A DNA stretch of 38,058 nt from Chiloscyllium plagiosum (taxonomy: Eukaryota). This document shows, piece after piece, positions 2,888 to 36,745 of the stretch; position 1 is the stretch's first letter; each line of letters opens with the position of its first letter. The notes below the pieces were generated by a model, which searched no databases, was not told the origin of the DNA, and saw nothing but the letters and a program-made list of their open reading frames with translations. The DNA lies in the NCBI RefSeq assembly GCF_004010195.1, contig NC_057755.1, forward strand, positions 62,001 through 100,058, written 5' to 3'. The translations under genes were made by a program, and so were the position numbers.

Positions 2888-3269
2888 ATGCCGCTATATT
2901 CACCTACTCCTACCATGGAACATTTGCTAGTGCAGTGTAACAAATGTTCCATAGTATGTGAATATCAACAGTTTAAATCTCAATTCCATTTTGGAAATTA
3001 ATCCCTGCCTTTTGTTTGCAATGATAGGGTCTTGTGCGGGAAGAAACCTGCGATGATGTTTGAGTTCAGTGGCCCATGTTCAGATGAAAATATTCTGATG
3101 AATAGTGATTCAACTGACGCTCTTACTCTCTCCGCAGATGCTGCCATCGCTGTTGGCTTTTGCCAGTTATATCCGATCCTCTGTCGTGTTTTTGACATTC
3201 TAATATAATTCATTTATTTTAAGGAAATGATTCGCTTTCCCACCTGCTTGCCAGCAGGAATTCTTACAA

Positions 3270-3560
3270 TCAGAGAACCCGAAGACGCCCTGCGTTCCAT
3301 CCATTTAGTGCTGTCAAATCGATACAAAATCTACACGCATCCCAGCTTCGAGCACTCGTCTCGTAGTCTCGAATGTTATGACGCTTCAAGTGTTCATCCA
3401 GATAGTTTTAAAGTTTGTAATGTTTCCTGCTTCCACGACCCTCCCAGGCAATGATTTACCAGACCCCCACCACTCTCTGGGTGAAAACCTCTTCCTCAGA
3501 TCCTCTCGAAACCTCTTCCCTTTCATCGTAAAAATTACACCACCGTGTCAACTGTTGATC
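3270..3560 (-). mobile_element. Old CR1 3'-end fragment in the GPCR intron
   Basis: The reverse strand resembles the CR1 3' regions elsewhere in the window. A paralogous copy lies at ~22420-22745 in the inverted duplicate. Confidence 0.6.
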
Positions 3561-3760
3561 GCCTGCCCACACTTAGTGAAACGCAGGAGTGAGCAGTTTT
3601 GAAATGGGTCAGACCACTGGACCTGTCCTGTTCAACCTCGAAATCGGAAACCTCCCAAATGGCTCAGTTGGGTGCTAAGATCTTCCATTGCTCTCTGGGC
3701 CGACGGAAGAACGTTTGAACATTAATTTATGATTTGTATTTTATCTCCTGTCTCTTTCAG

Positions 3761-4635
3761 TTAATTTTCTGGTGATTCTCGTCTTCGCACATGGGAATTG
3801 CGGTCTCTCTAAATGCACAACGCGCTGCCTGTTGGCTATGGCATTATCGGATATAATGTTCATTCTCACAAAGATCATACTGTGGGAACTTAATCATTTT
3901 TACTTCCCAAAGTGTTTTCTGGACCTCACCCCTGTGTGCAGTGCTGTCTTTGCCCTGTTTTGTGCAGCCACAGACTGTTCGGTCTGGTTCACTGTCCTTT
4001 TCTCCTTTGATCGTTTTGTGGCCATTTGCTGCCTGAAACTGAAGAGGAAATATTGGACAGAGAAAGCCTTGGCTGTGGTTCTGGCTACAACTGGCATTCT
4101 GGTCTGTTCAAAAAACATACCCTTCTACTTTCGGTTTAAACCGCAGATCATAAGTGACAATGTTTTGTGGTACTGTCAAACAAAGTCAAGTTATGATACT
4201 GATCCCAGGTGGTTGGGGTTTAAGTGGCTTGATATCATTTTAACACCTTTAATCCCATTCGTATTAATTCTGTTGATAAACACTCTGACGGTCAGGCACA
4301 TTTTAGTAGCCAGTCGAGTCTGCAAGAGCCTGAGGTGTCAAAGGAAGGGAGAGATTCACAAAGACGAAGAGATGGAGAGCCGGCAGAAGTCAGTGATTAC
4401 CCTCTTCACCATATCCATCAGCTTCATACTTCTGTGGGTACTGAACTTTGCAACGGTCTTATACATTAACATTAAAGGGACATATGAGTGGTGGGACAGG
4501 ACTCTCGTCCTTTTTAACGGCATCGCAGAAATGCTGAAGGAGTTCAGCTGCAGCACGAACACATTATTTTATGCAGTGACTCTGCCCAAGTTCAGAACGA
4601 AGCTCAGGAATGCACTTCACCAACTGTTCACGTAA
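3761..4635 (+). CDS. Main coding exon of an orphan rhodopsin-class GPCR, GPR139/GPR142-like; short first exon not located
   Basis: A pyrimidine tract and AG acceptor end at 3760 (ttttatctcctgtctctttcag|TTAAT). The frame is open: (V)NFLVILVFAHGNCGLSKCTTRCLLAMALSD...CSVWFTVLFSFDRFVAICC (DRY-like DRF)...PLIPFVLILLINTLTVRHIL...FTISISFILLW...SCSTNTLFYAVT (NPxxY-like). Hydrophobic TM segments are evident. No ATG start lies at the exon start, so an upstream exon is needed. Confidence 0.88.
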
Positions 4636-5449
4636 ATTCTTCATTTAATGACTCAGCAAAATAACTGAGAGAGCTCCAGAGTCATCCACATTGTTCCCAG
4701 TGCAGGAATTGCTCGTGTACGGTCAGGATTCTATCAGCACCATCACATGGATCCGAGTATAACACCCAGTGGTGAATGGGGTGGTCGGATAACAGGATGA
4801 GTCATCATTCACCACGCTGAGGAACACGCTGCTGTCCCTGTTTGACTTAAGGATTGACACGCACAGGGACACACAGACAATGAGCAGCAGGAGGCCGTTC
4901 AGCCCTTCGTGTCTGATCCTCCTGACTGCCCAGATCATCCAATTGTACCATCAAATCCGCATTTCCCTGTGCACCCGAGCTGCGCCCCCGTCCCACATCA
5001 TCACCCAAAACATGAATAAGAACCTATCTACATCCCCCTTCAACAATACTGAAGGACATGACAAAGGGATAACAGGTAAGGGAGCAAGAGGTGACTGTCA
5101 GGGGCATGGTAGGATTCAAAGAGGTTGCAGGAGTGATTCCAAATGATGGACTGGCTGTGACTGATGGGTTCAGCTGGAACATTGGGTCTTCACTGACTGC
5201 CCTATGGATGAGTGTTAAAGACTGACAGGAGCGGCCTCTTCATTTTCCCTGCAGAGGAGGAGGAAAAGGGACAGAAATAATCCCTCCTCCACCAAAATGA
5301 TTGTCGGACTCTCTTGTATAGCTCACAATAAACACTTCTTTACAACAATTTGAAGGCTCCCCTCGTCTGAATGGATTATTGTTACATGCACATTTGCTTT
5401 TGAGAGAGTTTATTGAGTCTCCCTTCTGCCTACTCCATGCACAAGGATA

Positions 5450-5730
5450 TCGTTTTCTGTCTCTCTCTCTCTGCTTCTTTCTATCTGTCTTTGTCTTTTC
5501 CTCTCTCGCTTTGTCTCAGCTTCTTGCTCAGTCTATCTCTCACGCTCTCAGTCTCACTCTGTGTGTTTCCCTGCTGTATCGTTCCATCTCTCTCTCTCTC
5601 TACCGACGCTCTGTCTGTCTGTCCCTCTGTCTTCCTTTATATTTACCCTTCTTGTCTCTGTGTTCAGCTCATTCTCTGGCTCTTTCTGGCTCTCTCTCGT
5701 GCTGTCTGTATCTTTATCTCACATTGTCTC
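5450..5730. repeat. CT-rich low-complexity tract (degenerate microsatellite)
   Basis: Runs of (CT)n/(TCTG)n; paralogous tracts at 20290-20560 and 34840-35160. Confidence 0.85.
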
Positions 5731-5899
5731 AGTTTAGTACGTGCTCATTTGCATTGACTAAAATCACGTCCTGATACCTTCATTCACTGATCCTTCCCCA
5801 GGAATTGATTTTGATAAATACAAAGTACGCAGATACAGCCAGCAACAACTTGACACATTAAGTATGTCTGCTGAACTTTGATTATCCCCCTTTTCTCTC

Positions 5900-7300
5900 A
5901 CAATGGCTGGGCAGGGGATGTGTTCATGTGTTTATCTTTCATTATGTGAGGGGCTCTGTGTGTCTCACTGTGGGGTGCGAGCTTCATTAACTTTGTAGGC
6001 ATGTCACTCTGGGCGTGTGTGTCCCTCAGTTTTTGCCATTGGACTGTGACACATTTTGAGCCCATTTTATCATCGATGTGTGGGTTTCTAATTCTGCGTA
6101 CTGGAAAGTTTTTCAGTGATTTCCTATTCATGTTTCTATGTGTTAGGGAATGTTATTCCCTCTGTATGAGAGGATTTCTGTGAAGTTGGATATTTTTATG
6201 TTAGTGTATGTTACTGTGCCTATGTGGTTTTTTTTGTGCGTGTGTTATGGTCAGCATGTCATGATGGTTCGGTGACTCCATGTGTTTGTGTGTCTCTGAG
6301 TGCCAGTGTATAAATGTGTGAGTGTGGGCGTGTGTCTTTCCTTGGCTGTGGTCTTGTTTAAGCAGGTGAGTGTGTTGTTCAGACTGTGTTTGGCTGTCTG
6401 TCCGTGTGTCAAGATCTTTCTGTGTCCCCAGCAGGATCTCTCTCTGCGTCTCTGTGGGTGTGTCTCTGTTTGGTACTGAGTGTCACCCTCTGTCGATACT
6501 TAATTGTGGTTTGGTTCAGGAGCGGTGCTTAAATATGCTTGTGTATATGTATAAGATGTCTCTGTCAATTCTTGCTCTGTAATGTATCTTACTCTGAGTT
6601 CGTTTATGTATGTGTATGAGGGTGTCCATGCGATTCTGTGTCTGTGTGGAGATGTGTTCCTATATCTCAGTATGAATGTATTTCTGTGTGCGCAAATATG
6701 TGTGCATTTGGTATGCACATGTTTGGGTTCCTTTCTTTGTCAGAATGTCTGTATTTATGTGTGTGTGTGTGCGCACGCACGCGCGCGCGTGTTTGTGCGG
6801 GCACACACTTGTGTAGCTTGGTTTCTCGCTCTCAGTATGACTGTATTTCTTTGTGTGTGGATGTGTGCATTCTGTCCATACATGAGTGCGTTCCTATATG
6901 TCATAGTACGTCTATTTCCATGTGTTTGAGTTCTTGTGTATATGTGTGTTTGTGCGTGTGCACGCACGCTTGTGTGAGTAGGGATGCCCCTTCTGCACGC
7001 TGATTGTATTCCTGTGTGTGTGGTGTGAGGATGTGGGAATGTTTCTGTAGTCCTTGTGTAGGTGTGTTCCCACATTTCAGTTTGATTGTGTTATTGTGTG
7101 TGTGTGTGTGTGTGCATGTATGTTTGTGAGTTAATGCGTATGCATATCTGTGTGTTTTTGTTTGTCAGTGTGTTCCTATATCTTACTTTGACTGTATTTC
7201 TATGTGTGGGTGTGCTTCTGCTTTTATGTGTATGTGTGTATGTGTGAGGCTGTGGGTTTGTTTCTCCGTCCCTCAAGGTGTGGTTATGTGTCTGTCTGAT
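5900..7300. repeat. GT-rich low-complexity region with (TG)n microsatellites
   Basis: Dense TG dinucleotides, with pure runs near 6760-6790 and 7095-7114. Confidence 0.85.
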
Positions 7301-10690: not shown

Positions 10691-11134
10691 GTAATAGAAA
10701 TGATTTCCAACTTTTGTCATTTTGGGGGAATGAACATTGGCTTCCAATGTGAAACTAACAAATGGTCTTATACTTTCAAATTCTCAAAAGTCAACATTGA
10801 GCCTTGCTCTCACTTTGCCCATTGACACAGTTACTTGACTCCCTGTTGTATTGCCTCCCAGCGTCACTTCTCTCCATCTCACTAACATTTCCTCATTCCT
10901 TATCCAATTGTCATCAAACCTCATACAAATCCCCACTCCTCACGCCTTCCCTTTCACGCATGCCTTGGCTTGTTCAAGTAGAACAGTGTGGACTGACGTA
11001 ATGTCCAACTGCTGATGTTGTCCTCACATGAGAGGGGATGAATGGACTTCTGCTGTTCTCCTTTTCAATCTCAAAATGAGTAAAGTCGCCTCCTCAAATT
11101 CCCAATTCCTCTGTTAACGTTTCAAGAAGGGTTT

Positions 11135-11452
11135 TTATTTTTATTCATTCAGGGGATGCGTGTGTCGCTGGCTTGCACCAGCATTTATTGAAAATCCCTA
11201 ATTTCCTCGAGGCCAGGTAAGTGTCAACCACATTGTTGTTGGTTGGGAGTTATATGTCGTACTGATGAGGGCAGGGTGGCAATTTTCCTCCCGAAAGGGT
11301 ATGAGTAAATTGACAACCGATCATCGTTAGACTCTTCAGTTTCAGAGTTTTATTGAATGCAAATTCTACCATCTTCTGCGTCCGGGTCCCCAGAACATTA
11401 CCGGGCTTCTGATTTACAGTCCAGTGATAATTCCACTTAGCCATTGTTTCCA
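11135..11452 (-). mobile_element. tRNA-derived SINE, copy 1
   Basis: On - there is a tRNA-like head (ggaaacaatggctaagtgg...ggggacccgg) and a 3' end 'catcccctgaatgaataaaa'. Confidence 0.65.
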
Positions 11453-11707
11453 CCTGCTGAATGGCCTCCTCCAGTATAACAGGCTGGAGAAGGGGCTGAA
11501 CAAAACCAAAAGAACTGCGGATGCTGTTAATTAGAAACAAAAACAGAAATTGCTGTTCATTCAATCAATTCATTAATCACATCAATTTTCTACCTCTTCC
11601 CAGTCTGACGTTCTGACAACCTAGGCCATTGCTTGAGCCAAACTTCCATCGATTGACTTCACCCGGTAATGATCATCCACATTTTCTTCAACGTTTCAAG
11701 AAGGGTT

Positions 11708-12027
11708 TTTATTTGTATTCATTCAGGGGATGCGTGTGTCGCTGGCTTGCACCAGCATTTATTGAAAATCCCTAATTTCCTCGAGGGCAGGTAAGTGTCA
11801 ACCACATTGTTGTTGGTTGGGAGTCATATGTCGTACTGATGAGGGAAGGGTGGCACTTTTCCTCCCGAAAGGGTATGAGTGAATTGACAACCGATCATCG
11901 TTAGACTCTTCAATTTCAGACTTTTATTGAATGCAAATTCTACCATCTGCTGCGTCCGGGTCCCCAGAACATTACCGGGCTTCTGGATTTACAGTCCAGT
12001 GATAATTCGACTTAGCCATTGCTTCCA
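11708..12027 (-). mobile_element. tRNA-derived SINE, copy 2 (made by the tandem duplication)
   Basis: Duplicate of 11135-11452. Confidence 0.65.
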
Positions 12028-12348
12028 CCTGCTGAATGGCCTCCTCCAGTATAACAAGCTGGAGAAGGGGCTGAACAAAACCAAAAGAACTGCGGACACT
12101 GTTAATTAGAAACAAAGACAGAAATTGCTGTTCATTCAATCAATTCATTAATCACATCAGTTTTCTACCTCTTCACAGTCTGACGTTCTGACAACCTAGG
12201 CCATTGCTTGAGCCAAACTTCCATCGATTGACTACACTAGACTCCTCCCACCCCGGTAATGATCATCCACATTTTCTTCCATTAGGCAGAAGGAGCAGAA
12301 GCCTGAACATACACTCCAGCAGGTTCAGGGACAACTTCCCGTCAGAAC

Positions 12349-16623: not shown

Positions 16624-17335
16624 GGGTTGTGGCACCTTTCCTCATGGAATCACACAGGCGACCTCTTTGTAGCAGGCTGTCCTACACCACCAAAAGGACC
16701 TGGCCGATCACGTCGCAACTCGGCCAGTAAGGCATCACTTCATGGAAACTTACTATTGTCTGAGGACTCGAGGCCTTTAGTCATCTTATTAAGAGATAAT
16801 TGTTGGTAAATCCTCTCCTATGTACAGTTGCCTGTGACCTCCATGAGAGAGGAATGGAATGACCGAGGGGCCGCACTGTTTGTGGAATTCATGTCATTCA
16901 GTCTGGCAGAAAAGGATTTGTTGATTATCTTAGAGGTTATCTTGGAGACTTCTGAAGTAAAGAGTGATGTTTACTGGTTATTCACCTTCTAGAGATCATC
17001 CATGACATAAACCCCAACCATCAGCTCCAGCAGGAATTTCTAAAAAACTTTTCTGGAGTTTTCTCAATTTCTCTCTCACCTATAGATCACCTTTGAGAAT
17101 AAAGATCCTCTTGATGGTCCCCTTGACAGATTCCCACAAGTCTGATGAAGACTCAAAGGAGGGCTTCACGTTCCTCCAACGTGTGTAACCCTTTTTAACT
17201 CCTCCATGTTTTCTGGTTTTGACAGTTTCACTTTCAGATTCCATGTTCCCTTGCAGGCCAGCAGGAGGCAGTAGTCAGAGAAGAACACGAACTTGACATC
17301 AGTCGATTATCTGAAACCAAATCCAACTTGGCTAG
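16624..17335 (-). mobile_element. Tx1-clade LINE ORF2 fragment, copy 1
   Basis: On - it reads DVKFVFFSDYCLLLA..GTWNLKVKL..PENMEELKR and is homologous to the Tx1 element at 27900-28370. Confidence 0.75.
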
Positions 17336-17689
17336 TCTCACTTCACAGGTGAAACACTCGGGTCCTTGTCAATCTCCCTTGCCTCTTCATCGTGAATTTT
17401 ATTTTCGAATGGCGCCAGTGGCAGGATAGAGCGTTTAGTCTCCGGAGCCTGTTAACTTCTGATCATCAGGCCGGTCGCAAGATCTTTCTTCTTTTCTCTC
17501 TCGTCTTCGTCTTGTTCTTCCGTTCCTTGTGGCAGTGATCACGGTGAAAGATGCCATCGGTGGTGTCTACAGCAGCAGCATTGTGAACCTGGAACAGGAA
17601 TCCTGGTGTCGATATTTAATTCTCCTTTACTCCTGACTTAACCTGATCATTATCTGTATTAAACTATATGTATTTAACTCTCTCTCTCT

Positions 17690-18062
17690 CTTTATAGATA
17701 CAAAATGATCAGAGGATTAGGTAGGATGGACAGTGAGAGTATTTTTCCTAGGATGGTGAAAACGGCTTGTACGAGGGGACATAGCTGCAATTTGAGAGGT
17801 GATAGATTTAAGACAAATTACAGAGGCTTTTTTAACTCAGAGGGAGTAAGGGCGTGAAATACCCTGCCGACTGAAGTAGTCAACTCAGCCACATTTGGGG
17901 CATTTAATCATCCCTTGGATAAGCATATGGATGATGATATGAAAGTGTGGGGGGAAGATCTTAGATTAGTTCACAGGTCGGCGCAACATCAAAGGCCGAA
18001 TTGCCTGTTCTGCACTGTATTGTTCTATGTTCTATATTCTATATTCTATGTTATATGTTCTC
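17690..18062 (+). mobile_element. CR1 3' end with a (TTCTA/TATGTTC)n tail, copy 1
   Basis: Similar to 30540-30886; microsatellite tail at ~18020-18060. Confidence 0.85.
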
Positions 18063-18142
18063 TATTAAACAAGAAAATAGCCAGGTAGAGATATGCTCCA
18101 CACTCCCACAGTAATGCACTGACACTCAGAGATACTCACACG

Positions 18143-18855
18143 GGGTTGTGGCACCTTTCCTCATGGAATCACACAGGCGACCTCTTTGTAGCAGGCTGTC
18201 CTACACCACCAACAGGACCTGGCAAATCACGTCGCAACTCGGCCAGTGAGGCATCACTTCATGGAAACTTACTATTGTCTGAGGACTCGAGGCCTTTAGT
18301 CATCTTATTAAGAGATAATTGTTGGTAAATCCTCTCCTATGTACAGTTGCCTGTGACCTCCATGAGAGAGGAATGGAATGACCGAGGGGCCGCACTGTTT
18401 GTGGAATTCATGTCATGCAGTCTGGCAGAAAAGGATTTGTTGATTATCTTAGAGGTTATCTTGGAGACTTCTGAAGTAAAGAGTGATGCTTACTGTCTAT
18501 TCACATTCTAGAGATCATCCATGACATAAACCCCAACCATCAGCTCCAGCAGGAAGTTCTAAAACACTTTTCTGGAGTTTTCTCAATGTCTCTCTCACCT
18601 ATAGATCACCTTTGAGAATAAAGATCCTCTTGATGTTCCCCTTGACAGATTCCCACAAGTCTGATGAAGACTAAAAGGAGGGCTTCACGTTCCTCCAACT
18701 TGTGTAACCCTTTTTAACTCCTCCATGTTTTCTGGTTTTGACAGTTTCACTTTCAGATTCCATGTTCCCTTGCAGGCCAGCAGGAGGCAGTAGTCAGAGA
18801 AGAACACTAACTTGACATCAGTCGATTATCTGAAACCAAATGCAACTTGGCTAGT
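18143..18855 (-). mobile_element. Tx1-clade LINE ORF2 fragment, copy 2
   Basis: Duplicate of 16624-17335. Confidence 0.75.
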
Positions 18856-19207
18856 CTCACTTCACAGGTGAAACACTCGGGTCATTGTCAATCTCCCTTG
18901 CCTCTTCATCGTGAATTTTATTTTCGAATGGCGCCGGTGGCAGGATAGAGTGTTTAGTCTCCGGAGCCTGTTAACTTCTGATCATCAGGCCGGTCGCAAG
19001 ATCTTTCTTCTTTTCTCTCTCGTCTTCGTCTTGTTCATTTTCCTTGTGGCAGTGATCACGGTGAAAGATGCCATCGGTGGTGTCTACAGCAGCAGCATTG
19101 TGAACCTGGAACAGGAATCCTGGTGTCGGTATTTAATTCTCCTTTACTCCTGACTTAACGTGATCACTATCTGTATTAAACTATATGTATTTAACTCTCT
19201 CTCTCTC

Positions 19208-19581
19208 TTTATAGATACAAAATGATCAGAGGATTAGGTAGGATGGACAGTGAGAGTATTTTTCCTAGGATGGTGAAAACGGCTTGTACGAGGGGACATA
19301 GCTGCAATTTGAGAGGTGATAGATTTAAGACAAATTACAGAGGCTTTTTTAACTCAGAGGGAGTAAGGGCGTGAAATACCCTGCCGACTGAAGTAGTCAA
19401 CTCAGCCACATTTGGGGCATTTAATCATCCTTTGGATAAGCATATGGATGATGATGTGAAAGTGTAGGGGGAAGATCTTAGATTAGTTCACAGGTCGGCG
19501 CAACATCAAAGGCCGAATTGCCTGTTCTGCACTGTATTGTTCTATGTTCTATATTCTATATTCTATGTTATATGTTCTCTA
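19208..19581 (+). mobile_element. CR1 3' end, copy 2
   Basis: Duplicate of 17690-18062. Confidence 0.85.
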
Positions 19582-20289
19582 TTAAACAAGAAAATAGCCA
19601 GGTAGAGATATGCTCCACACTCCCACAGTAATGCACTGACACTCAGAGATACTCACACGGGGTAACAGAACCATCATGACATCCTGACAGTAACACACAT
19701 ATACACACATGCAAAGCTACGCAGTCATGCGACTGTAACCCCACAAACAACACATACATAGTCAAAAACAGAACAGATGCACATGTGCAAGCACAAGATA
19801 CGCAATCACACAGGCACCGTAACATACACCCACACAAAATACACTCACCTTCATGGAAACCCTCTCATAGAGACTGAATAACATTCCAAAATACATAAAC
19901 ACATGAATATATCGTCACCGACGTACTTCCCAATACCCACAAAGGGAAACTTATGCGCATAAATGCACTCTTAAAGTGTCACACTCAGAGACATACCTAA
20001 TGACAAGAACTGAGGGACATACACACAGAGTGACATCCTCACAATGGCAGTGACACTCAGAGACACGCAGAGACCCTCACACACCGAAAGGAAAATACAT
20101 AAACACACGTCCCATCCAACAACAGGGAGAGGACAGGTCGATGATCAAACTCCATCAGACTTAATTACGGTAATGTGCCAAAATATTGCTCCTGTATCTG
20201 TGCACTGTGTATTTTGCAAAATCACTGCCTGGGGAATGATGGGATGTTAGTATGTGACAAGTGTCTGACATGGTCAATGTGAGAAAGAT

Positions 20290-20560
20290 GCAGAGAGAGC
20301 GAAGGCGAGACAGAGAGACAGCGAAAGATAGACAGTGAGCCAAAAAAGGATAGTCACAGACGGAGACAGAGAGACAAACAAACAGATAAAGAGGTAGAGA
20401 GAGAGAGAACAATACAGACAGGGAGGCTCATCGAGCAAGACAGAGACAGAGAGAGAGAGACTGATCAAGAAGCTGAGAGATGGGGGCAGTTCGAGAGAGG
20501 AACAGAGGAACAGACAAAGATAAACAGAAAGGGGCAGAGATAGAGAGAAAGCCGAGGAGC
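20290..20560. repeat. GA-rich low-complexity tract
   Basis: (GA)n/(GACA)n runs; inverted paralogue of 5450-5730. Confidence 0.85.
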
Positions 20561-21369
20561 TGACGGAAGGTGGACTGAATGAACTCAATCTCAAAAAATA
20601 TGTCTGTGAAAATAACTCATTCAGATGAGGGGATCACCAGCACCCGGAGCCTTTCCCTTGTTGTAATAGTGTTTATTATGAGCTGTGCAGAGAGTCAGAC
20701 AGTTATGATGGTTCGGGAGGAACTATTTCTGACCCTTCCGCTCTTCCCCTGCAGGGGAAATGCAGTGACCTTTCCTGCCAGTCTTTCACGGTCATCCACA
20801 GGGCAGGCAGTGAAGACCCAATGTTGCAGCTGAACCCATCACTCACAGCCAGTCCGTCATTTTCAATCGCTCCTGCACCCTCTTTCCATCTGACCCTGAC
20901 GTTGGTCGTTACCTCTTCCCCTTTATCTGCAGTCACTTTGTCACGCCATTCAGTATTGCTGAATTTGGAGATAGATAGATTCAAATACAAATTGTGGGAT
21001 GGGGGTTGCGGTGGTGCAGTGCACAGGTGCACACGAAATGCGGGTTTGATGGTCCAATTTAATGAACCACCATCTACTGGCTGGCAGGAGGACCAGACAT
21101 GAAGCGCTGAAAGGCCTCCTGCTGCTCATTTCTGTGTGCCCCTGTGTATGACAAACCGTCTGTCAATCAGAAATTGCAGCGTTTTCCTGAGCGTATTGAA
21201 TGTTGACCCATTCTTTTCCCCTCCTTCCCGTCCATCATTGGGTATATACTCAGATCCATGTGATTGTACGGATGGAATCTTGGCCGTGCATATGCAATTC
21301 CTGGACTGGGAAAAGTGCGGTTGCCTCTGGAGTTCTCTCCGTTGCTTTGCTGAGTCATTAAGTGAAGGA

Positions 21370-22258
21370 TTTGTGTAACCAGTTGATGCACCAAATCCTG
21401 AACTTCGCTCTGAACTTGGACGGAGATACTGATTAAATAATGTGTTTGTGCTGCAGTTGAAATCCTTCAGCATTACTCTGACGAACACAAGATTCTTCAG
21501 AGAACCTCCATACTTGTCAGGAATTGTTCTGTTAATACTGTAAAATAAGAAATTTGCACGGGCCGCAACCCACAGAAGTATGAAGGTGGTGGATGTTGTG
21601 AAGAGGAAAATCACCGACTTCCCGTGTTTCTCCATCTCTGCATCGTTCTGATGCTCTCCCTTCCTCTGCCCCCTCAGACTCTTGCAGATTCGACTGGCGA
21701 CTAAAATGCATGTCATGGTCAGTGTGTTCATCAAATGAAATAACACAAATGGAATGAAATGATTTAAATGTGACCGAACTAAATAACTCTTGCTACATAT
21801 GATCAGTAATATAGCTTAACTTTGATCGAATGTACCATGGAACGTTATCAATTATCTTCCGAGTTTCAAATTGAAAATAGCTGGAAATGTTTTTTGAACA
21901 GACCAGAATGCCAGTTGCAGCCAGAGCCACAGCCAGGGCTTTCTCTGAACAACATTTTCTCGTTATTTTCAGGCAGCACATAGGCACAAAATAATCAAAG
22001 CAGAAACTGACTGAACCAGATGGAACAGTCTGCGGCTGCACTGACCAGGACAAAGACAGCACTGCACAAAGGAATCATGACCATAAACAGTTTGGGAAGT
22101 AAAAGTGTTTGAATTGGAACAGTATGATGTTAGTGAGAATGAACAGTATATCCGATGTTCCCAGAGAATGAACAGTATATCCGATAACAGCCAGCGCGTT
22201 GTGCAGTTGGAGAGGCCACATTTTACACGCAAGAGACCGAAGATCACGAGGAAATTAA
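21370..22258 (-). pseudogene. GPR139-like GPCR pseudogene (main exon)
   Basis: The acceptor AG lies at 22260-22259. Pieces in different frames match gene 1: VKCGLSNCTTRWLLSD; FDYFVPMCCLKITRKCCSEKALAVALAATGILVCSKNI; MNTLTMTCILVASRICKSLRGQRKGE...FILLWV...MLKDFNCSTNTLF. There are multiple frameshifts and deletions. Confidence 0.92.
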
Positions 22259-23644
22259 CTGAAAGAGACAGGAGGTAAAATGGAAATCGGAAATTACAGA
22301 TCAGACATTGTCTATGTCAGCCCAGATAACAGTGGAAGATCTGAGCACGTAAATGGGAGGGTTCAGACGTTAAATCTAAAAATGATGGCTCCAAGGCTAA
22401 CTCATTTCAAAGCTGCTCACTCCTGGGTTTAACTAAGTGGAGGCAACGAATTGGGAGATTCTACTGGGACATAAGTTTGAAGGTGAAATGCAGAAGGTTC
22501 AGAAGGGATTTGAGGAACCCCTTTCACCCAGAATATGGGGTTCTGAGAATTCAGTGCTGGGGAGTGGGAGTGGGGGTTAGTTGAGGCGCGAAACCTCACA
22601 ACTTTTAAAAACTATCTGGTTGGACGTTTGAAGTGTCATGATATTCGAGGTTATGATTACATTCCTGGAAGCTGGGACAAGTTCAGGTTTCGTATTGTTT
22701 TGACAACACAAACTTGACGGACCGCTTCTGTTGGGCTCGATGATTAGAAGAATTGCCTCTTTGAGGCAGGTTAGGAAGTGAACTATTTCAATGGCATAAG
22801 TCAGACTGAGGATGCTGGAAGCACCAAACAGAAACGGCTGGCGAAACTCAACAGAAATGGCAGCATCAGTGAAGAGAGAAATAGTTAACAAAATCACTCA
22901 TCAGAACAACTTCATCTGAACATGGGTCATTGGAGTCAAAAACTAAACTCAGTTTTTTCCTTGCACAAAACTACATCGTTACAGAAGAAGGACAGGGGTT
23001 CATTTCGAAAAGGAAACTGAGATTCAAAGTGTTGATAATCATCTATTTTGGAACATTTGTTAGATCTCTCTTAGGATACCAGGGGATAGTTCTCGTAGCC
23101 ATATTACAAGATGTATCGTTCCACCTGAGATGATGCAAATATTCAATGGAGAACGCTAACAGCTGAGAACGTTTGTTTTATCACTAAAGGCACAAGCCAT
23201 TATCTAAGCCCTCACTGTGATCATGAAATGAGAACTTGTTGTCTCATGACTTTTGAAAAGTCAACAATTCCATGTCATATTCAGCAAATCTTTTAATTTT
23301 ACTGGTACATTCCGTTAGCAAAGCGTGCAAAATTCAATAAGAGAAATGTATTTTTTGTTGAAAATGCATCCTCTGCGCTGTGTGACTCCAATATTTCACT
23401 AGTGCAATTACTGACTGCGTCTTTTCCATTCTGTGTTTGGCATAATATTATCAAAACCCAGTCTCTCTGACTGTCCATTGTGTTCTATTCATGTCCAGGG
23501 TAACTAACATTTAAAGTAACGATCTGAATACCCAACAGTCAGTATACTGAACGAGACAATATCATTTCACATTTCTTTTTAAGAAAAGCACTTTATCTTA
23601 TAATTAGAACAAGCAAGCAATATTAACCTGAAGAGTTAATTGAT

Positions 23645-24430: not shown

Positions 24431-25527
24431 TGTGCTGTTAGCTCCCCAGTTTATCATGAACTTCCAGTGTTACATGTCTGGCAGGGGGTGAGGAAATTTG
24501 TTTGGGTTGCCTCTGGTGCCAGGTGAAGAGGTACTAATTTGGAGGGAGGGCTGATGGGGAATTGTATCCCACTGTTGATGTCAGGTCATACAATCTGGGG
24601 CATATAATAGATCTTAAGGGGTGTAGTTGGAGTGCAGTCTGCCGTCAGTTTTCAGAACTCAGGAGTTAAATTTTGTGTTTAATAGCCTCACTTCTGTTCT
24701 GATACCACCTGACATAATTACTGAACTACTCACACACAAGGCAAAAATCCAGCTTGATGGATCACAACCTTATTTGCTTTTGGTTTAATAAAGCGATATT
24801 TTGCTATTGGAAACGCCCAATACTGCAAATACTTCCTCAACAACACAATAGAAAATTACTGCAACAGAAACGATGTAAAATAGAATAAACCACACTCTGC
24901 ACTTGCGACGCAGGTTCAAAGGCATTGAACATGCAGTAAATATTGAATCCCATTAACCTCAAAGGAATGCATAAATTCAAAAGAAAGAAAATGAATTTTA
25001 TATAGTAAATAAAGCCACACTCCTGCTGCCATTCGAAAGAATATAGCTCTGGTATTTTACACCAGATTCCCAGTATCTAACACTTAGTTAAGGGACTTGT
25101 GACTTCCACTTTTAAACTGGAACTGAAGTAACTTCTTACTGAAGGGATCACACAACTGAGCGTCAAAGTCCTCAGCTTTATATCATTTCTTCAGGACTTT
25201 GGTCTGTTTCTAATATTTCGGGACTGGGATGATCATGAAATGTTCACTCTTATGTAATCTAATCCACGAAATCTCACATTTCCTTCTGATGAGCACAGAT
25301 CTATGCATTCACCCAGTTCCAATGTATTCCAAGGGCTAAGAAAATGACTCAAGTTTAGACGTGCAACTGAAGGTTTCTCAGTTAAGGTTGCTTTCTAAAA
25401 TCTCAGATTCTAGAACTCTCCAACAAATCTTTGACTCTCCATTAAAGCCATGCTGACTTACAAACAATCGAAAATAAACAAAAAAATCATTCATGCAAAA
25501 AGCCATTCAACACACAGCGAAACTTCA

Positions 25528-26983
25528 AATAACATACCCGAAACAACAGCGAAGACAGGTGATAGAACTATTACTGACTTTTTCTTTTTTTTTTCATTGG
25601 AACTGTTCTGAACTTTTGGAAAAAGTAGTGACTATGGAAAATACGATATGAGCTATGGGATTTTAATGTAGAAAATATCATTTCAGTGAGTTTAGTTCTG
25701 TTTTTTTTTGTTAGAGTTAATAAATGGCGGCCTTCTCTGAAGTTCAGACTTAACTTCAAATGTAGCTTTTGTTAGAAAGTAGTGGTTGATCCCTCTCTGA
25801 CAACTAAAACTGCATCATCCAAAGAGGAGCAACTCATCCTATAATCCGTAAAAAGAGTGTGAAAGTTTGTGTAACCAGCTTTTCAGAAACATCTTGTAGT
25901 TGAACAAAATAAATCCCTGATACTCACTTTAAATTCAACAAGCAACACTTTATCTAACTCTAATAATTAACAAATAAAATAAACTATGAACAAACCTAAT
26001 AAATCTCTCCTAACTACTAATTATTCCAGAATGAAGCAAACTTCTATTGGTATACTGGTTCAAATTCCCTGATGTTAAAAAAAACTCAGAATTTAGTCTC
26101 CAAATTAATAGCCAAGTGATGCGTCTTCTGGAATGTTCTGTGCATTCTTCCGTCTAGTCTTCTGTTAGGAATGCTTCCACCAATTCTTTTGCCAGGAAAC
26201 CTTTTTCCATTGTTGGTCCAGTTATTTTTTTTTTAGATGGTGCTTTAGAGTGTGAAAGCCAATTCTTTCTCAAAAGCTGAGATCTATTAACTCTGGCAGA
26301 CGGCAATTAGCTCTGGAGTCTCTGTCCAACTATTGCCTTCTTTTGTACCCTTGACATAACAACATTCTTGTATATGATTGTGTCTATGCTGTGAAAAAAA
26401 ATCTGATTTAATTTTAATTTATTTTGTGCGTCTAAGGGCCTGGTTCGAAATGATTAGCTAAATTCAAAACCTGTTGTCTTGTTAAAATCTGCTCCTTGAC
26501 CTGTTAACTGTACAGCCTTTTGATAAAAAAAAGTTTCCGTTTGGGCTCTTGGTGTACCTGCAAGCCCCCAAGCTGCTGCTCGCAGAGATCCATTTTAAGC
26601 TCCAAACACAGAAATAAAAACAACATATTTTAAAAGAACCATGCAATGCTTTCCCCATTTTACAATTTTACAAATAAAAACTTCTAACTACCCGCCCCTA
26701 ATCCACAATTATTCTACTCCATCTCACGACACAGTCTTAACAGCAATGCTGACAAGTTAAGTCTGAACTTCAGAGAAGGCCGCCATTTATTAACTCTAAC
26801 AAAAAAAAAACAGAACTAAACTAACTGAAATGATATTTTCTACATAAAAATCCCATAGCTCATATCTTATTTTCCAGGGTCACTACTTTTTCCAAAAGTT
26901 TAGAACAGTTCCAATGAAAAAAAAGAGAAAAAGTCAGTGATAGTTCTATCACCTGTCTACGCTGTTGTTTCGGGTATGTTATT
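25528..26983. repeat. Inverted repeat pair with ~230-bp arms (25528-25756 and 26754-26983) and a ~1-kb spacer
   Basis: The left arm AATAACATACCCGAAACAACAGCG...CTGAAGTTCAGACTTAACTT is nearly the exact reverse complement of AAGTTAAGTCTGAACTTCAG...CGCTGTTGTTTCGGGTATGTTATT. Confidence 0.95.
25761..26663. mobile_element. LTR-like block inside the inverted-repeat spacer
   Basis: Starts TGTAG and ends TTACA; non-coding; no TSD seen. Confidence 0.35.
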
Positions 26984-27179
26984 CAAGTTCTCCTTTGTGA
27001 TGACTGGATTGGTATATGAGCAGGTAAGGTTTAGAGGGACATGGGCCAAATGGGATTGGATTGATTCAGAATATCTGGTCGGCATCGATGAGTTGGACTG
27101 AACTGTTTTTGTACTGTGCATTTCTATGATTCCATGATTCAAAGTCTGAATTTAGTTTCTCAGCCCATTCTTTTCTTTT

Positions 27180-28375
27180 CAGACACTCGTTGCACTGGGG
27201 AGACAGCTACCCCGGTGCAGAGTGTGTTTCTGAAGATGCTCCCCCAAACACGGGGTTGCAGGGAGACCCCAGTGTCCTTACCGTGTGTGAACAGAGTTTG
27301 GGTCTCTTGTTAATTCCATAAACTCCCAAAATTAGTTTTGAAATGGCTGGCATTACCTGACCAAGGTTAAAGCGGACCTCCTGTTTCTGCAAGAGTGTAG
27401 GATTCAGCATCCCAACAGGTCCAGGGAAGGGTCGAGCATAATGGACCTGATTGGCCTTTAACCTGATTGGGGGCATAAAATACCGTTCCTCTGGTCTGTG
27501 CATTCTGCTGTAAGGAGGCAACTTCAAAATCTCCGAGGTTAAGGAGGTGGCGGAAGTGAGGCTCCTCCTCGTAGCAGAGGCTATGTACAGAAACGCTGCC
27601 CTGAGACTAATGAACGTGCATGGCCTGATGGTAAAGAGTGATTAGCTGGGTGTCCTGCAGCAGCTCCCACTGCTGTAGGCATGCCCAGACCAGTCATTCT
27701 GGGCAGAGACTGCAACTTCATCATCGATGCGGATGGAAGATGCTGACAGCAAACCAGACACCATGTCCAGATTCTTGATGGAAACGGTTAAAGCTGCATG
27801 ATATCTTCCACACCCCTGCAGATCGAACGTGGCCTAGATACACTTAGTCTAAGCCAGAAGCTCCATCTACTTAAGGGTAGATTTCCTCTTTTTATTCAGC
27901 ATGTTCTTAGTCAGATCTATCAACTTCAAGCCGACGTTCTACTCTGACAACTGCCTCTTGCTGGCCATCAAGGAAAGGACGTATCTGAACGAGAAATTGA
28001 TAACCCCAGAAAACTTTGAGAAGCTCAAAAGGGATCTCACAGTGAGGATACCCGTGAAGCCCATCATTGAGTTTCAACTAGACGTGTGGGAAACGGTCGA
28101 GGGCAACAACAAGGCGTTCTTTATCCTCAAAGGTGTTGAAAGTATGGGAGGGATGGGGAAAGCTGTCCAAAATCCAGAAAAGCGTGCAGCGCCTATTCCT
28201 GTTGCATAAAATGGGGATCGATGTCACAGACGATCTCCAGAATGTGAAGAGCCTGTAAGCCACACTCTTTGCCTCGGAAGCGTCCAAGATAATCTCCCAG
28301 TGCAGGGTCCACACCGTGGAGCAGGATGAAACGTGGTCGCATTTTTTTCCAGGACCTGCTGGAAGTGTACGTCAG
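27180..28375 (+). mobile_element. Tx1-clade LINE fragment: APE endonuclease region of ORF2
   Basis: Reads VKADLLFLQEC, LRLMNVHG, PVILG(GDFN-like)..IIDADG, KPTFYSDNCLLLA and LITPENFEKLKR; degenerate. Confidence 0.85.
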
Positions 28376-29320: not shown

Positions 29321-29324
29321 AATT

Positions 29325-30886
29325 TAAAATAGATAAGTCCCCTGGGCCTGATGGCATTTATCCTAGGATTCTCTGGGAAGCAAGGGAGGAGATTGCAGAG
29401 CCATTGGCCTTGATTTTTATGTCCTCTTTGTCTACAGGAGTAGTGCCAGAAGACTGGAGGATAGCAAATGTGGTTCCCTTGTTCAAAAAGGGGAGTAGGG
29501 ATAACCCTAGTAACTATAGGCCGGTGAGTCTCACTTCTGTTGTGGGCAAAGTCTTAGAGAGAATTGTAAGGGATAGGATTTATGCACATCTGGATAAGAA
29601 TAATGTGATCAAGGATAGTCAGCATGGTTTTGTGAAGGGCAGGTCGTGCCTCACAAACCTTATTGAATTCTTTGAAAAGGTGACGAAGGAGGTTGATGAG
29701 GGGAAAGCGGTAGATGTGGTATATATGGATTTTAGTAAGGCGTTTGATAAGGTTCCCCATGGTAGGCTACTGCAGAAAATACGGAGATATGGCATAGAGG
29801 GTGAGTTGGAGGTTTGGATTAGGAATTAGCTGGATGGAAGAAGACAGAGGGTAGTAGTTGATGGCAAAGTTTCTTCATGGAGTGCCGTCACTAGCGGTGT
29901 TCCGCAAGGATCTGTGTTGGGACCATTGCTGTTTGTCATTTTTATAAATGACCTGGAAGAGGGGTTAGAAGGTTGGGTGAGCAAGTTTGCGGATGACACA
30001 AAAGTCGGAGGAGTTGTTGACAGTGAGGAAGCATGTGGCAGGTTACAGCAGGATATAGAGAAGCTGCAGAGCTGGGCAGAAAGGTGGCAAATGGAATACA
30101 ATGTAGCTAAGTGTGAGGTGATTCACTTTGGGAAGAATAACAAAAAGATGGGGTACGGGGCTAATGGACGGATACTTGGTAGAGAGGATGAGCAGAGGGA
30201 TCTTGGTGTCCATGTACACAGATCTCTGAAAGTTGCCACCCAAGTAAATAGTGCGGTGAGGAAGGCATATGGCGTACTGACTTTTATTGGTAGAGGAATT
30301 GAGTTCCGGAGTCCTGAGGTCATGATGCAGTTGTATAAGACTCTGGTACGACCGCATCTGGAATATTGTGTGCAGTTTTGGTCACCATACTATAGGAAGG
30401 ATGTGGAGGCATTGGAACGGGTGCAGAGGAGGTTTACCAGGATGTTGCCTGGTATGGAAGGAAAATCGTATGAGGAAAGACTGAGGCACTTGGGGCCGTT
30501 TTCACTAGAGAAAAGAAGGTTTAGGGGTGACTTGATTGAGGGGTACAAGATGATTAGGGGGTTAGATAGGGTCGACAGAATGAACCTTTTCCCGCGTATT
30601 GAGTCGGGTATTACAAGGGGGCATAGCTACAAATTGAAGGGCGATGGACAGATGTCAGGGACAGGTTCTTTACTCAGAGAGTGGTAAGGGCGTGGAATGC
30701 CCTGCCTGCCAATTTAATTAACTCAGCCACATGAGTGGTATTTAAGCAATCCTTGGATAAGCACATGGATAATGATGGGATAGCGTTGGGGGATGGGTTT
30801 AGATTATTTCACAGGTTGGTGCAACATCGAGAGCCGAGGGGCCTGATCTGTGCTGTATCATTCTACGGTCTATGTTCTATGTTCTA
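29325..30886 (+). mobile_element. Relatively young, 5'-truncated CR1 LINE (RT domain and 3' UTR)
   Basis: ORFs 29404-29829 and 29914-30687 share a frame and are separated by TAG at 29827. Motifs include NYRPVSLTS, DFSKAFDKVPH, GVPQGSVLGP and FADD (29986-29997). It ends in a (TATGTTC)n tail. Confidence 0.96.
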
Positions 30887-31071
30887 AGTAGCTGTTTTGG
30901 CTAAAAGTACAAGATCAAGATCCTGGCAGCTTTGCAGATCTGCTGCACATTTTGGAATAGTGGCCTGTGTGTTCCCTAAATCTATCCCATTAAATCAATT
31001 ACCTGTCATGTCATATGCATGCAGCTAAAGATAACCTGCACCATCAGGAATCTGCATCCTGGAGAAGCTAC

Positions 31072-31370: not shown

Positions 31371-31384
31371 GGTTCAGAGAAAGA

Positions 31385-32109: not shown

Positions 32110-33500
32110 AAGAAGAAAGGAGACAACAAGGACTGCCCCTCAAAGAACAGCAAGGCGGTTTCTGTGTGGATCTGCAGTCGTGGATATATCTCAGGACCTG
32201 ATCAGGTGTACACTAGAACTTTGTGGGAAGCTGGGGAAGTGATTGCTGAGATACTTGTATTATAGATAGTCATCGGTGAGATGTTGAAGACTGGAGGTTG
32301 GCTAATGTGGTGCCATTATTTAAGAAAGGTGGTAAGGAGAAAAAAGGGAAGCATAGACCAGTGAGGCTGACGTCAGTGGTGGGAAAGTTGTTGGTGGGAA
32401 TTCTGAGGGAGAGGATCTACATGTATTTGGAAAGGCAACGACTGATTATGGGTAGTCAACATGGTTTTGTGTGTGAAAAATCGTTTCATATACTCAATTG
32501 AGTTTTTTGAAGAACTAACAAAGAGGATTGATGAGGCAAGAGCAGTGGAAATGATCTATATGGACTTCAGTAAGTTTGTCAAGGGCGTTTCCCATGGGAG
32601 ACTGGTTAGGAAGGTTAGATCGCATGAATACAGGGAGGACTAGCCATTTGGGCACAGAACTGGCTCGAAAGCAGTAAATAGGGTGGTGGAAGGTTATTTT
32701 TTCAGACTATAGTCCTGTGACTAAAGATGGGTGCGGAGTCCACAACTTTTAGTCATTTATGTGAATGATTTGGATGTGAACACAAGATGTATAGTCAGTG
32801 AAGAAGGTTACTTGAGTGTACAACGTGATCTTGATCAGATGGGGCAATGGGCTAAGGAGTGGCAGTTGGACTTCAATTTCGATAAATGTGAGGTGCTGCA
32901 TGTTGGGAAAACAAATTTTTGCAGGACTAACACACTAATGATTAGGTCGAAGGGAGTGTTGATGAACAAAGAGACCTTGGAGTGCAGGTTCATAGCTTCT
33001 TGAAAGTGGAGTTGCAGCTCAATAGCATCGTGAAGAAGGTTTTCGGAATGCTTTCCTTTATTGGTCAGAGTATTGAGTATATGATTTGTGAAGTCGTGTT
33101 CTGGCTGTACAGGGTGTTGGTTAGGACACATTTGTAATATTGCTTGCTATTCACGTCTCCTTCTTCTCGGAAGGATGTTGTGAAACTTGAAAGGGGTACA
33201 GGATGTTGCCAGATTTGAAGGAATTGAGCAAGAGGGAGAGGTGACTAGGTTAGGCACTGTTTTCTCTGGAGCATTGGTAGCTAATGGGTGACCTTATAGA
33301 GGTTTGTAAAATCATGAGGGGCAAGAATACGGGGTAGAGGCAAAGTATTTTCCCTGTGATGGGGAGTCCAGAATTAGAACTTACAGCCTTAGGGTGAGAG
33401 GGGAAAGATACAAAAGAGTCCTAAGGAACAACCTCTTCATGCAGGTTGGTACAGATATGGAATGAGCTGACAGTGGAAGAGGTGGAGGCCAGTAAAAATA
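32110..33500 (+). mobile_element. Degenerate CR1 LINE RT
   Basis: Reads ANVVPLFKKG, RPVRLTSVVGKLL, MIYMDFSK, VQRDLDQMGQWAKEWQLDFNFDKCEVLH; closely resembles 250-2887. Confidence 0.9.
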
Positions 33501-33599
33501 TAAAAATCACCACTATACTTGTGCACACAAAAGCCATCACCCTAAATATGTTACCTGCAGAATGGGATCATAGTGAATACATTTGTAATGGACGTACCC

Positions 33600-34029: not shown

Positions 34030-34137
34030 TAGAGACCAAAGTGACAACGTCTTCACGCAGAGGATGATACGTGCATGGAATGAGCTGCCAGTGGAAGTGG
34101 TGGAGTCCAGTACAAGTATAGCGTTTAGAAGGCACTA
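34030..34137 (+). mobile_element. Short CR1 3' fragment at the breakpoint of the third duplicate
   Basis: caacgtcttcacgcagagg...tggaatgagctgccagtggaagtggtggag is similar to 2658-2720 and 33430-33495. Confidence 0.7.
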
Positions 34138-35314
34138 AGAGAGCTCCAGAGGCAATCATAGTGTTCCCAGTGAAAGAATTGCATATGCATATCCAGGATT
34201 CCATCAGAAAAATCACATGGATCTGAGTATAACTCCCAGCATTGGATGGGGAGGCGGATAACGGGATGGGTCACTATTCACCACGCTCAGGAACGCGCTG
34301 CTGTCCCTGATTGTGGCTCATCTAATTATAATGTCAATTTTACATTCACTTATGTCCGTAAGGACCAACCCATTCCTCCCTGTCCAAAGGTTAACAATAC
34401 TCTATCCATTTCTGCATTGAAATTATTGAAGGGACAGCAGGTATGGACGCAAGGGGTGACTGATAGGGGCATGGTAGGGTGGAAAGAGGCTGCAGGAGTG
34501 ACTCAAAATGAAGGACTGACTGTGAGTGATGGGTTCAGCTGGAACATTGAGTCTTCACGGACATCCCTGTGATTGAGTGTTAAAGTCCGGCAAGAGGGTT
34601 CTCTGCATTTCCCCTGCAGGGGAGGTGGGGTCAGATACAGTCTCTCTTTTACCATGATGATTTGTTGGACTCTCTCTGTGCAACGTGCGATAATCACATT
34701 ATTATAAGAAGAGAAAGGATCCGTATGCTGGTGAACCACATCTAAATTTAAAATCTTTTTCTGCTGCGTTTTTTACTTTTGAAAGAGTTTCTTGAGCCCA
34801 ACCTCCCGTCCACGCTCAATACGAGAATATTACTCCCCACTCTGCCTTTTTCTGTCTACCATTGTCGCACTCCCTGTCCTCTATCTCTCTCTTTCTGTCA
34901 CTCTATTTCACTACGTCTATCTCTGTCTCTCCCTATCTTTCAGTTTGTCGCTATTAGTTTCTTCCTGTGTCACTCTGTCTGTCGCTCTATCTCTCTTCGC
35001 CTTTCTCTGCCTTCGCTCTCTCTACATCTCTGTCTCAGTTTATCTTTGTCTCTCTCCCTCTCTCTTTTTCTCTCACTCGTTGTCTCTCTGTCGAACTCTT
35101 TCTCAGTCTCTGTCTCCTTCTCTCTCTCTCTATCTGTATCTCCTTCTCTTTCTCTCATTAACTGAGTCAGACGCTTGACTCAGTTATGTACGTGTTCACC
35201 TGTATTAGCTCAAATCCTTTCTTCATTTCTTCAGTCATAGGTTTTACCTCAGGAAGTGATTTTGTAAAACACATCATGCACTGCGACAACCAGCAATGAC
35301 TTGTCACAATATGA

Positions 35315-35718
35315 ACCTCATCTTCCACCCAGGAACCCTCCAACCACAAGGGATGAACTCGGATTTCACCAGTTTCCTCATTTCCCCTCCCCCCACCTTG
35401 TCTCAGTCAAATCCATCGAATTCAGCACCGCCTTCCTAATCTGCAATCTTCTTCCTGACCTCTCCGCCCCCACCCCAGTCTGACCTTTCACCCTCACCTT
35501 GACCTCTTTCCACCTATCACATTTCCGACGCTCCTCCCCCAAGTCCCTCCTCCCTACCTTTTATCTTAGCATGCTGGACAAACTTTCCTCATTCCTGAAG
35601 AAGGGCTTATGCCCGAAACGTCGATTCTCCTGTTCCCTGGATGCTGCCTGACCTGCTGCGCTTTTCCAGCAACACATTTTCAGCTCTGATCTCCAGCATC
35701 TGCAGACTTCACTTTCTC
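35315..35718 (+). mobile_element. Penelope-like 3' fragment with a 10-bp TSD
   Basis: Starts with a GIY-YIG-type C-terminus (LIFHPGTLQPQGMNSDFTSF), followed by the pLTR. Flanked by CACAATATGA at 35305-35314 and 35719-35728. Confidence 0.85.
35591..35626 (+). ncRNA. Minimal type-I hammerhead ribozyme motif in the Penelope pLTR
   Basis: CUGAAGA-A-[GGGC UUAU GCCC]-GAAAC-GUC has both core boxes, a 4-bp stem II, a palindromic ACGU stem III region and a GUC triplet. Confidence 0.7.
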
Positions 35719-35814
35719 CACAATATGATTTACAGTTCTGTAAAGATCTATATCCCTGCATCTGCAGCAATCTGAGTTTCTCTCTCTCTGTCTCTCTCTG
35801 CTTCTCTCTCGCTC

Positions 35815-35847
<33 letters not shown>

Positions 35848-36745
35848 ACCTCTTTTTTCCGTGTCTCCCATCCGAACACCTTCGACCATGGTCTCTATCT
35901 CTCCTCGTGTCAGTGAGGGCGATTGTCTGTGTGTCTTGCCCTTTCGGTGTGTAAGGATCTTTGTGTAAGTGGTTTCGATGTTTTTGTGGGAATGTCACTC
36001 TGTGTGTGTATCCCACTTTTTTCCCATTGTATACTTCCCTGTGCCACCCTTTCTGAATGTGATTCTGCATCTCTCCGTTTTTTTTTATTTTCTGGGTGCG
36101 TGGAAGCTATTCTGTGACTAGATATAGCAGTTTGAGTATGCTATTGAGTTTGTGTGCTACTGTGTCTGTGAGTGTTTTTACCGATGTGCCTGCTACTATG
36201 CTTTACAATTGTGTATCTGTGTGTGTTTTGCACACGTGCATCCGATGTCTTTCTGTCTGTGTGCATGTTCTTTGTAAATTTGTGTGGGTCACCATGTGTG
36301 ATTACATTCCTGTAACATGTTCGCCTGGGGCGTGTGTGTTTGTGTGTGTGTAACTCTCAGCATCTCATGATGATTCTGTGACTCCATGTGTTCAGATCTC
36401 TCTTTGCCCCAGCAGTATATCTCTTTGCGTGTGTCTCTGGATTTGTTTATAATTGTCGCTCTATGACTGTATCTAATTGTGTTTTTCGTTCTGTAATTTG
36501 TTTGAGTGTGATCATGTGAGTGGAAAGAATATTTCTGTAAGTCCTCGCATATTGGTGTGTAATGTCATTCAGTATGACTTCATTTCCCTTCGTTAGGATG
36601 TCTGCATGATTCGGTGTCTATGTACAGATGTGTTCTTATATCGAAGGATGACTTTATTTCTCTGTGTGCGGATGTAGATGCCTTCTCTTTGTGTGCCTAA
36701 GTGTATTTCTATAACTCCGATTATGACTGGATTCCTGTCTGCGTA

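Follow-up and report, generated by a model that had tools for sequence, protein, structure and literature searches.

The mammalian FPR and MRGPR clusters and the OR, V1R, TAAR and T2R repertoires consist of clustered paralogs, with pseudogenes and variable pockets. In nematodes, the srw genes form a clustered expansion by birth and death from myosuppressin/FMRFamide-type receptors, and passages of PMC2576165 propose that they are environmental peptide sensors. We compared with these systems a 38,058-nucleotide stretch of Chiloscyllium plagiosum DNA (NCBI RefSeq assembly GCF_004010195.1, contig NC_057755.1, positions 62,001 to 100,058; hereafter the window), in which a unit carrying an exon of a GPR139-like G protein-coupled receptor (GPCR) of class A occurs three times. 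The window is likely to be part of a gene cluster belonging to a chondrichthyan-expanded, two-exon class A GPCR family that is tuned to many ligands, and the sequence comparisons outlined below suggest a birth-and-death, pocket-diversified GPCR repertoire that arose from an unexpected ancestor. The mammalian families differ from the shark family in receptor ancestry, the window peptide matching 7tm_1 only. The srw expansion started from the wider receptor clade to which GPR139 belongs, but it took place independently and in another phylum, and srw ligands are also unproven.

In analyses excerpted from PMC8514136 and PMC12208981, GPR139 and GPR142 group together with the receptors for MIP, FMRFamide and proctolin. 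Beside GPR139/142, Table 1 of PMC5207463 places two further families, 'Orphan 139-like' and 'NMOGPR', whose entries for membership and ligand read 'Unclear/Unknown', and the excerpts of that paper considered here mention no shark expansion for either. One of the two may be the lineage described in this work, and the lineage may already carry a name. The naming of both families in that survey reportedly draws on Yun et al. 2015. We found no published description of the expansion in literature searches covering mostly open papers, and its genes are automatically annotated. Searches for GPR139 turned up no entry in the supplements of PMC10529500, PMC13188829 and PMC12361510 (one file of the last was unreadable), and in that of PMC8455134 they yielded a GPR142 orthogroup alone, with 70 proteins in 35 taxa.

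Three states of one receptor unit

Alignment of the window with itself (self-BLAST) revealed a unit of ~3.4 kb that is present once with an open exon, once in inverted orientation with a broken exon, and once as a remnant of its 3' flank. The features are as follows.

2938-3760, plus strand: copy 1, 3' part of the intron; 71% identity to copy 2 (23062-22259), with a polypyrimidine tract and an AG acceptor at its end
3761-4635, plus strand: copy 1, exon 2 with an open frame, encoding a GPR139-like receptor of class A from the end of transmembrane helix 1 (TM1) to helix 8 and the C-terminus; phase-1 acceptor
4636-6361, plus strand: copy 1, 3' flank, common to all three copies; the family hidden Markov model (HMM) reaches 4662
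19582-23062, minus strand: copy 2, entire inverted unit with intron end, broken exon 2 and 3' flank
21371-22258, minus strand: copy 2, pseudogenized exon 2, interrupted by a TAG at 21795 and by 7 frame-breaking indel events
34134-36748, plus strand: copy 3, 3' flank only, starting at the family's old stop-codon position

Copies 1 and 2 (2938-6361 on the plus strand and 23062-19582 on the minus strand) align over 3397 columns with 70% identity (E 0.0). Copy 3 matches the 3' flank of copy 1 alone, in the same order and on the plus strand, in three blocks (4664-4844 to 34134-34313, 81% identity; 5064-5860 to 34429-35311, 65%; 5992-6770 to 35983-36748, 60%). The three states of the unit are real and far beyond chance. 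A first-pass annotation of this DNA had described one multi-kb cassette in three states, which is borne out by the self-alignment, the gap list and a six-frame search with the family HMM. The array itself stands as described there; its bounds are corrected, as the unit begins at 2938 and not at 3030, and copy 2 reaches 23062 and not 22970.

In copy 1, the AG of the splice acceptor (3759-3760) is followed by an open frame of 291 amino acids that ends with TAA at 4633-4635. The frame-breaking events of copy 2 were read from the gap list of the alignment; its TAG at 21795 is clear and in frame, and another TAG at 21781 adjoins an indel. In all six frames of the window, the family HMM detects coding remnants at copies 1 and 2 only, and none at copy 3. 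The printed junction shows the left edge of copy 3 directly abutting sequence that resembles a long interspersed nuclear element (LINE), and the exon of this copy would most simply have been lost by deletion. An older family stop, TGA at 4666-4668, sits 10-11 codons past the TAA of copy 1. The resulting short tail is a subfamily trait: the closest Hemiscyllium and Chiloscyllium proteins stop at the same place, and copy 2 has CAA there.

The copy 1 peptide has 7tm_1 as its sole Pfam match (61.5 bits, cut-off 30.5), and was modeled as a class A seven-transmembrane fold that begins with the last part of TM1 and extends through TM7 into helix 8 (predicted local distance difference test score, 86.8). 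The top Foldseek match of this model is GPR139 (7VUG), with 20-21% identity and with a probability of 1.0 to class A structures. N1.50, D2.50, C3.25, the DRF motif, P5.50, F6.44, W6.48, N7.49 and Y7.53 are all in place, and P6.50 and P7.50 are substituted, as they are across the whole shark family. The predicted peptide is a class A (rhodopsin-like) GPCR portion. Neither the Pfam result nor the nearest structures, GPR139 and peptide receptors, assign it to the OR, TAAR, V1R, V2R or T2R families.

The open frame of copy 1 corresponds to exon 2: its relatives typically carry ~22 extra N-terminal residues with most of TM1, and a canonical exon-1 peptide is present in 97 of them. The window holds exon 2 of copy 1, and a whole gene is not demonstrated. 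We searched the window with an exon-1 profile built from 95 peptides and found no family exon 1: the best score was 8.8, shuffle maxima reached 9.4, and genuine exon-1 peptides had a leave-one-out median of 43.5. An earlier profile of 11 peptides likewise found nothing above shuffles in the window. A single-exon gene at this locus was considered and rejected, as stop codons in copy 1 and in copy 2 block the intron read-through start that RefSeq models of the nearest relatives use.

Copy 1 probably is, or was until recently, a functional exon 2 whose exon 1 lies upstream of the window. It has stayed open while copy 2 gathered at least 8 lesions, and it has kept outgroup residues about 2.5 times as often as copy 2 (59:26, 53:21 and 52:20; p<5e-4). 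A count of private changes in copy 1 (18/149, compared with 4-11) was disregarded, the relatives being grouped in close pairs. In run X23, which is RNA by guess only, two contigs with a 30-nt overlap span the greater part of exon 2 with ~91% identity, the unaligned part of the exon being the stretch 4441-4524 from TM6 to extracellular loop 3 (ECL3). One of these contigs ceases to align at 3762 and leaves 137 letters over, whereas contig 11 of run X4 (3623-3834) aligns across the acceptor. The X23 sequences thus suggest a spliced mRNA of a ~91% paralog, with the direction of the leftover taken from the contig overlap. Depth over the exon is high in X4, but it does not measure how many copies exist and was not taken to do so.

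Several observations at the locus weigh against a living gene in a diversified family. Exon 1 is found neither in the 3.76 kb upstream of copy 1 nor in the 15 kb upstream of copy 2. The models of the five closest relatives also come without a family-type exon 1, and the subfamily of copy 1 could consist of exon-2-only fragments. When copies 1 and 2 are compared, the exon shows no more conservation than its surroundings (76% identity, flanks 71-79%), and the ratio of nonsynonymous to synonymous change (dN/dS) is 0.66. In the single-cell run X21, of which about 2% was sampled, there was no depth on 3801-5000; 853 reads were placed, nearly all on repeats and none on the exon. We considered a neutral amplification, in which exon 2 and its flanks were copied by segmental duplication in LINE-rich DNA, the majority of copies, perhaps including copy 1, being headless or decaying and without a diversified function. 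The missing exon 1 and the similar identities of exon and flanks would suit this scenario, as would RefSeq models of the nearest relatives that begin in intron read-through or LINE-like sequence, the death of two of the three local copies, and a region rich in LINEs and tandem duplications. It is nevertheless unlikely, given the open frame and retained outgroup residues of copy 1, the relatives with a canonical exon-1 peptide, and a ~91% paralog that looks spliced.

The shark-and-ray family and its relatives

Among 2132 candidates, 989 proteins match the copy 1 peptide at E<=1e-5. The best 120 of these 989 all come from sharks and rays (14 species) and are mostly labeled 'probable GPR139' in RefSeq; the horn shark Heterodontus francisci contributes 69 of them. 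For 30 of the 69 horn-shark members the contig has the same length, 74.5 Mb, which suggests a single chromosome. The closest matches (66-69% identity) belong to Hemiscyllium and Chiloscyllium, and the copy 1 peptide groups with them with a support of 100. An all-against search yielded 95 clusters (50% identity, E<=1e-30). Twenty cluster representatives comprise 15 from elasmobranchs, 1 from Callorhinchus, 1 sturgeon gene, 1 further family-like protein and 2 outgroups. The presence of a Callorhinchus member among these distant representatives indicates that the family is older than the shark-chimaera split. Clustered paralogs, pseudogenes and species-specific expansion, as in a birth-and-death repertoire, are all found. 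The lineage-expanded receptor repertoire that the first-pass annotation had put forward, as opposed to one or two copies genome-wide, is supported, with dozens of paralogs per shark genome.

Some family members carry stray RefSeq names ('compound eye opsin BCRH2-like', 'CCR8-like', 'capa receptor-like' and 'vasopressin V2 receptor-like'), and many of the models have spurious-looking N-termini, derived from intron read-through or repeats. Both would hide the family in surveys. A protein atlas search returned solely automatic GPR139/FMRFamide-receptor-like names, and a metagenome scan for family DNA gave 10 pattern matches, none of which was confirmed.

A family profile recovered human GPR139 first (111 bits), with a neurotensin receptor next (89 bits), and after GPR139 the next structures are those of neurotensin and other peptide receptors. 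Based on profile and model, the family is placed in the wider GPR139/142 clade, with GPR139 as its nearest characterized receptor. Human GPR139 (7VUG) and GPR142 resemble copy 1 in being class A receptors with W6.48 and without the proline of NPxxY. GPR139 is a conserved gene, whereas the shark family is multi-copy, has a hypervariable pocket and shares about 20% identity with it. C3.25 and a cysteine in ECL2 are found in the copy 1 family, and GPR139 does not have this cysteine pair. Phe-109, His-187, Trp-241 and Asn-271 of GPR139 (F109, H187, W241 and N271; F3x33, H5x43, W6x48 and N7x38) are key residues for Trp and Phe, as stated in PMC5430874. Copy 1 has C, D, W and E at these positions and thus keeps one of the four.

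The RefSeq name 'probable GPR139' and the top rank of GPR139 for both profile and model would be compatible with the peptide being GPR139 or GPR142 itself, or a plain local duplicate. This is most improbable, considering the 20-21% structural identity, the single retained pocket residue, C3.25, and the finding that the peptide alone gives no GPR139 match at E<=0.001. Nor does the gene behave as a single-copy GPR139, with three local copies and 69 horn-shark paralogs in the best 120. The 'GPR139-like' label of the first-pass annotation holds at the level of the clade only and fails as a statement of orthology; sequence and model argue that the peptide is not the syntenic GPR139/GPR142 orthologue. 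That annotation had also set the copies beside mammalian single-copy GPR139. By profile, structural match and pocket residues, the copies belong to a related lineage and are not GPR139.

We next consider the sister lineages. A salamander relative has 25 matches among 1675 candidates, 20 of them amphibian, 1 from sturgeon and 4 from elasmobranchs. The 20 amphibian rows represent 20 different species, and the gene thus looks single-copy in amphibians and sturgeon. None of the 25 comes from a teleost or an amniote. The shark family and the amphibian/sturgeon clade are sisters, with a Shimodaira-Hasegawa-like approximate likelihood ratio test (SH-aLRT) support of 98-99. The amphibian/sturgeon gene (XP_069092602.1, RXM35349.1) has a motif from intracellular loop 3 to TM6 in common with the shark family, and differs from it by having one row per species, a near-invariant pocket and 22-25% identity to the window peptide. 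In amphibians, the gene retains F3.33, W6.48 and N7.39 of GPR139, with a lysine replacing the arginine at 6.51, and the three retained residues suggest an ancestor that sensed amino acids or peptides. The amphibian/sturgeon pocket is polar and basic (R2.61, K6.51, K6.55, R7.35, N7.39). This gene is a good target for deorphanization; being apparently single-copy in amphibians and keeping much of the GPR139 pocket, it offers a way to probe the ancestral ligand and the path from receptor to repertoire.

A second GPR139-like lineage, represented by Latimeria XP_005988539.1, forms a clade separate from the shark family (support 99 each). It bears the same RefSeq label and lies in the same wider clade, and it has shark orthologs of its own, with one row each in three shark species. 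The Latimeria-type gene is found in sharks, bony fishes, amphibians and reptiles; the best 120 of 145 matches to the Latimeria protein include no mammal or bird name and no true GPR139 or GPR142. Two of the Latimeria-type models are named TMEM183A isoforms, a hint at the neighboring gene.

Variability of the predicted ligand pocket

We compared protein-level entropy at 26 pocket positions with that at 146 other TM positions. Among the 69 horn-shark paralogs (mean identity 77%), pocket entropy is 1.61 compared with 0.54 elsewhere, a 3.0-fold excess (p 9e-9), and 11 paralogs from Mustelus give 1.26 and 0.59. The relation is reversed in 20 amphibian orthologs of similar identity (80%), where the pocket scores 0.07 and the remainder 0.46 (0.16-fold). 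The 47 Latimeria-type orthologs are not hypervariable in the pocket either (0.63 versus 0.87, ratio 0.73). The horn-shark excess persists relative to the 46 positions of the outer half that lie outside the pocket (0.89, p 2e-4), and the ratio stays between 2.6 and 3.8 across 200 subsamples of 20. The 69 horn-shark paralogs have 68 distinct pocket strings, and the 20 amphibian orthologs have 6. Six near-paralogs from Chiloscyllium vary at 40 of 85 extracellular versus 15 of 98 intracellular sites (p 4e-6).

The signaling core is far from this pattern. C3.25, D3.49, W6.48, N7.49 and Y7.53 are present in 69/69 horn-shark paralogs, and N1.50, D2.50, C3.25 with the ECL2 cysteine, DRF, P5.50, W6.48 and NTxxY are invariant or nearly so. 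These findings together indicate that the predicted ligand pocket and the extracellular loops are hypervariable on a conserved scaffold. Variation focused on the pocket, with near-invariant core motifs, argues further against neutral copying of the exon.

Some properties of the data belong on the other side of the balance. The pocket positions were derived from generic numbering on sequence anchors and not from a structural model, and entropy at the protein level is not equivalent to testing codons for positive selection. The two trees come from quick searches with SH-aLRT only and no bootstrap, and GPR139 and GPR142 are absent from them. The best-120 sample, finally, leans to one subfamily.

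Candidate roles and other features of the window

We propose that the family originated from a non-mammalian GPR139-like paralog, the one that looks single-copy in amphibians and sturgeon. Local duplication with inversion, pseudogenization and erasure are seen here at small scale, and there are dozens of paralogs per genome. Each paralog would bind a different small ligand and signal via a G protein. The ligands would likely be peptides or amino-acid-like molecules, of the kind bound by GPR139 and its invertebrate FMRFamide/MIP-receptor relatives. The repertoire would then sample a diverse, changing and probably external ligand space, which its turnover would track.

The receptors could instead serve the shark's own diversified neuroendocrine or reproductive peptides and co-evolve with that peptide family. 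A clade akin to the MIP, FMRFamide and proctolin receptors, with peptide receptors as the next structures, would be in line with this possibility. Bursts that are specific to individual species would not, nor would the 68 different pockets of a single one, and receptors for endogenous peptides tend to keep stable 1:1 orthology, an argument made for nematode srw versus FMRFamide receptors in passages of PMC2576165. We thus regard such an endogenous set as quite improbable.

For a repertoire directed at external ligands, environmental or social chemosensing is a reasonable possibility, though somewhat short of an even chance. Sensing of peptides that derive from microbes or from damage, in skin, gut or immune cells, is somewhat less probable. 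Our broadest proposal, in which an overlooked chondrichthyan chemoreceptor family some 400 million years old, whose genes would number in the dozens or perhaps hundreds in each genome, descends from a GPR139-like amino-acid/peptide receptor, is put forward tentatively, with the balance tilting against it. If true, this family would be larger than the known OR, TAAR and V1R families of sharks. It would help to account for the detection of amino acids and peptides in animals whose canonical olfactory receptors are few, and would be a counterpart of the srw expansion of nematodes. Excerpts of PMC11979771 report no GPCR among the 50 most specific genes of catshark olfactory libraries, which counts weakly against a chemosensory family, because known olfactory receptors are also absent among those 50 genes.

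Cartilaginous fishes are credited with a 'relative paucity' of GPCRs in passages of PMC8455134, where relatives of MAS1 are also reported as absent in these animals. In the catshark, 2 OR, 6 OR-like, 3 ORA and 3 TAAR genes are listed in the excerpted part of PMC11979771. The at least 68 distinct pockets in one shark already exceed these canonical receptor counts. A large, ligand-diversified repertoire filed under one automatic label would change the receptor-poor picture in any of these roles, be it olfaction, sensing in skin or gut, or immune function.

The remainder of the window is marked by repeats and duplications. In 13 other open reading frames scanned, reverse transcriptase is the only domain match. 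A LINE reverse-transcriptase frame (RVT_1) that is well preserved and contains one stop lies at 29323-30687, and older LINE-related fragments are located at about 900-2700 and at 32180-33441. A recent tandem duplication of 2 x ~1.52 kb (16624-19663, 98%) includes the far end of the copy 2 flank, and another one of 2 x ~0.58 kb is found at 11116-12279 (94%). At 25500-27010, inverted ends of ~257 bp (93%) surround ~1 kb of AT-rich DNA, an arrangement that looks like a non-autonomous DNA transposon. Dispersed repeats of ~71% identity are present at 16933-17286, 18452-18805, 27936-28296 and 30544-30889.

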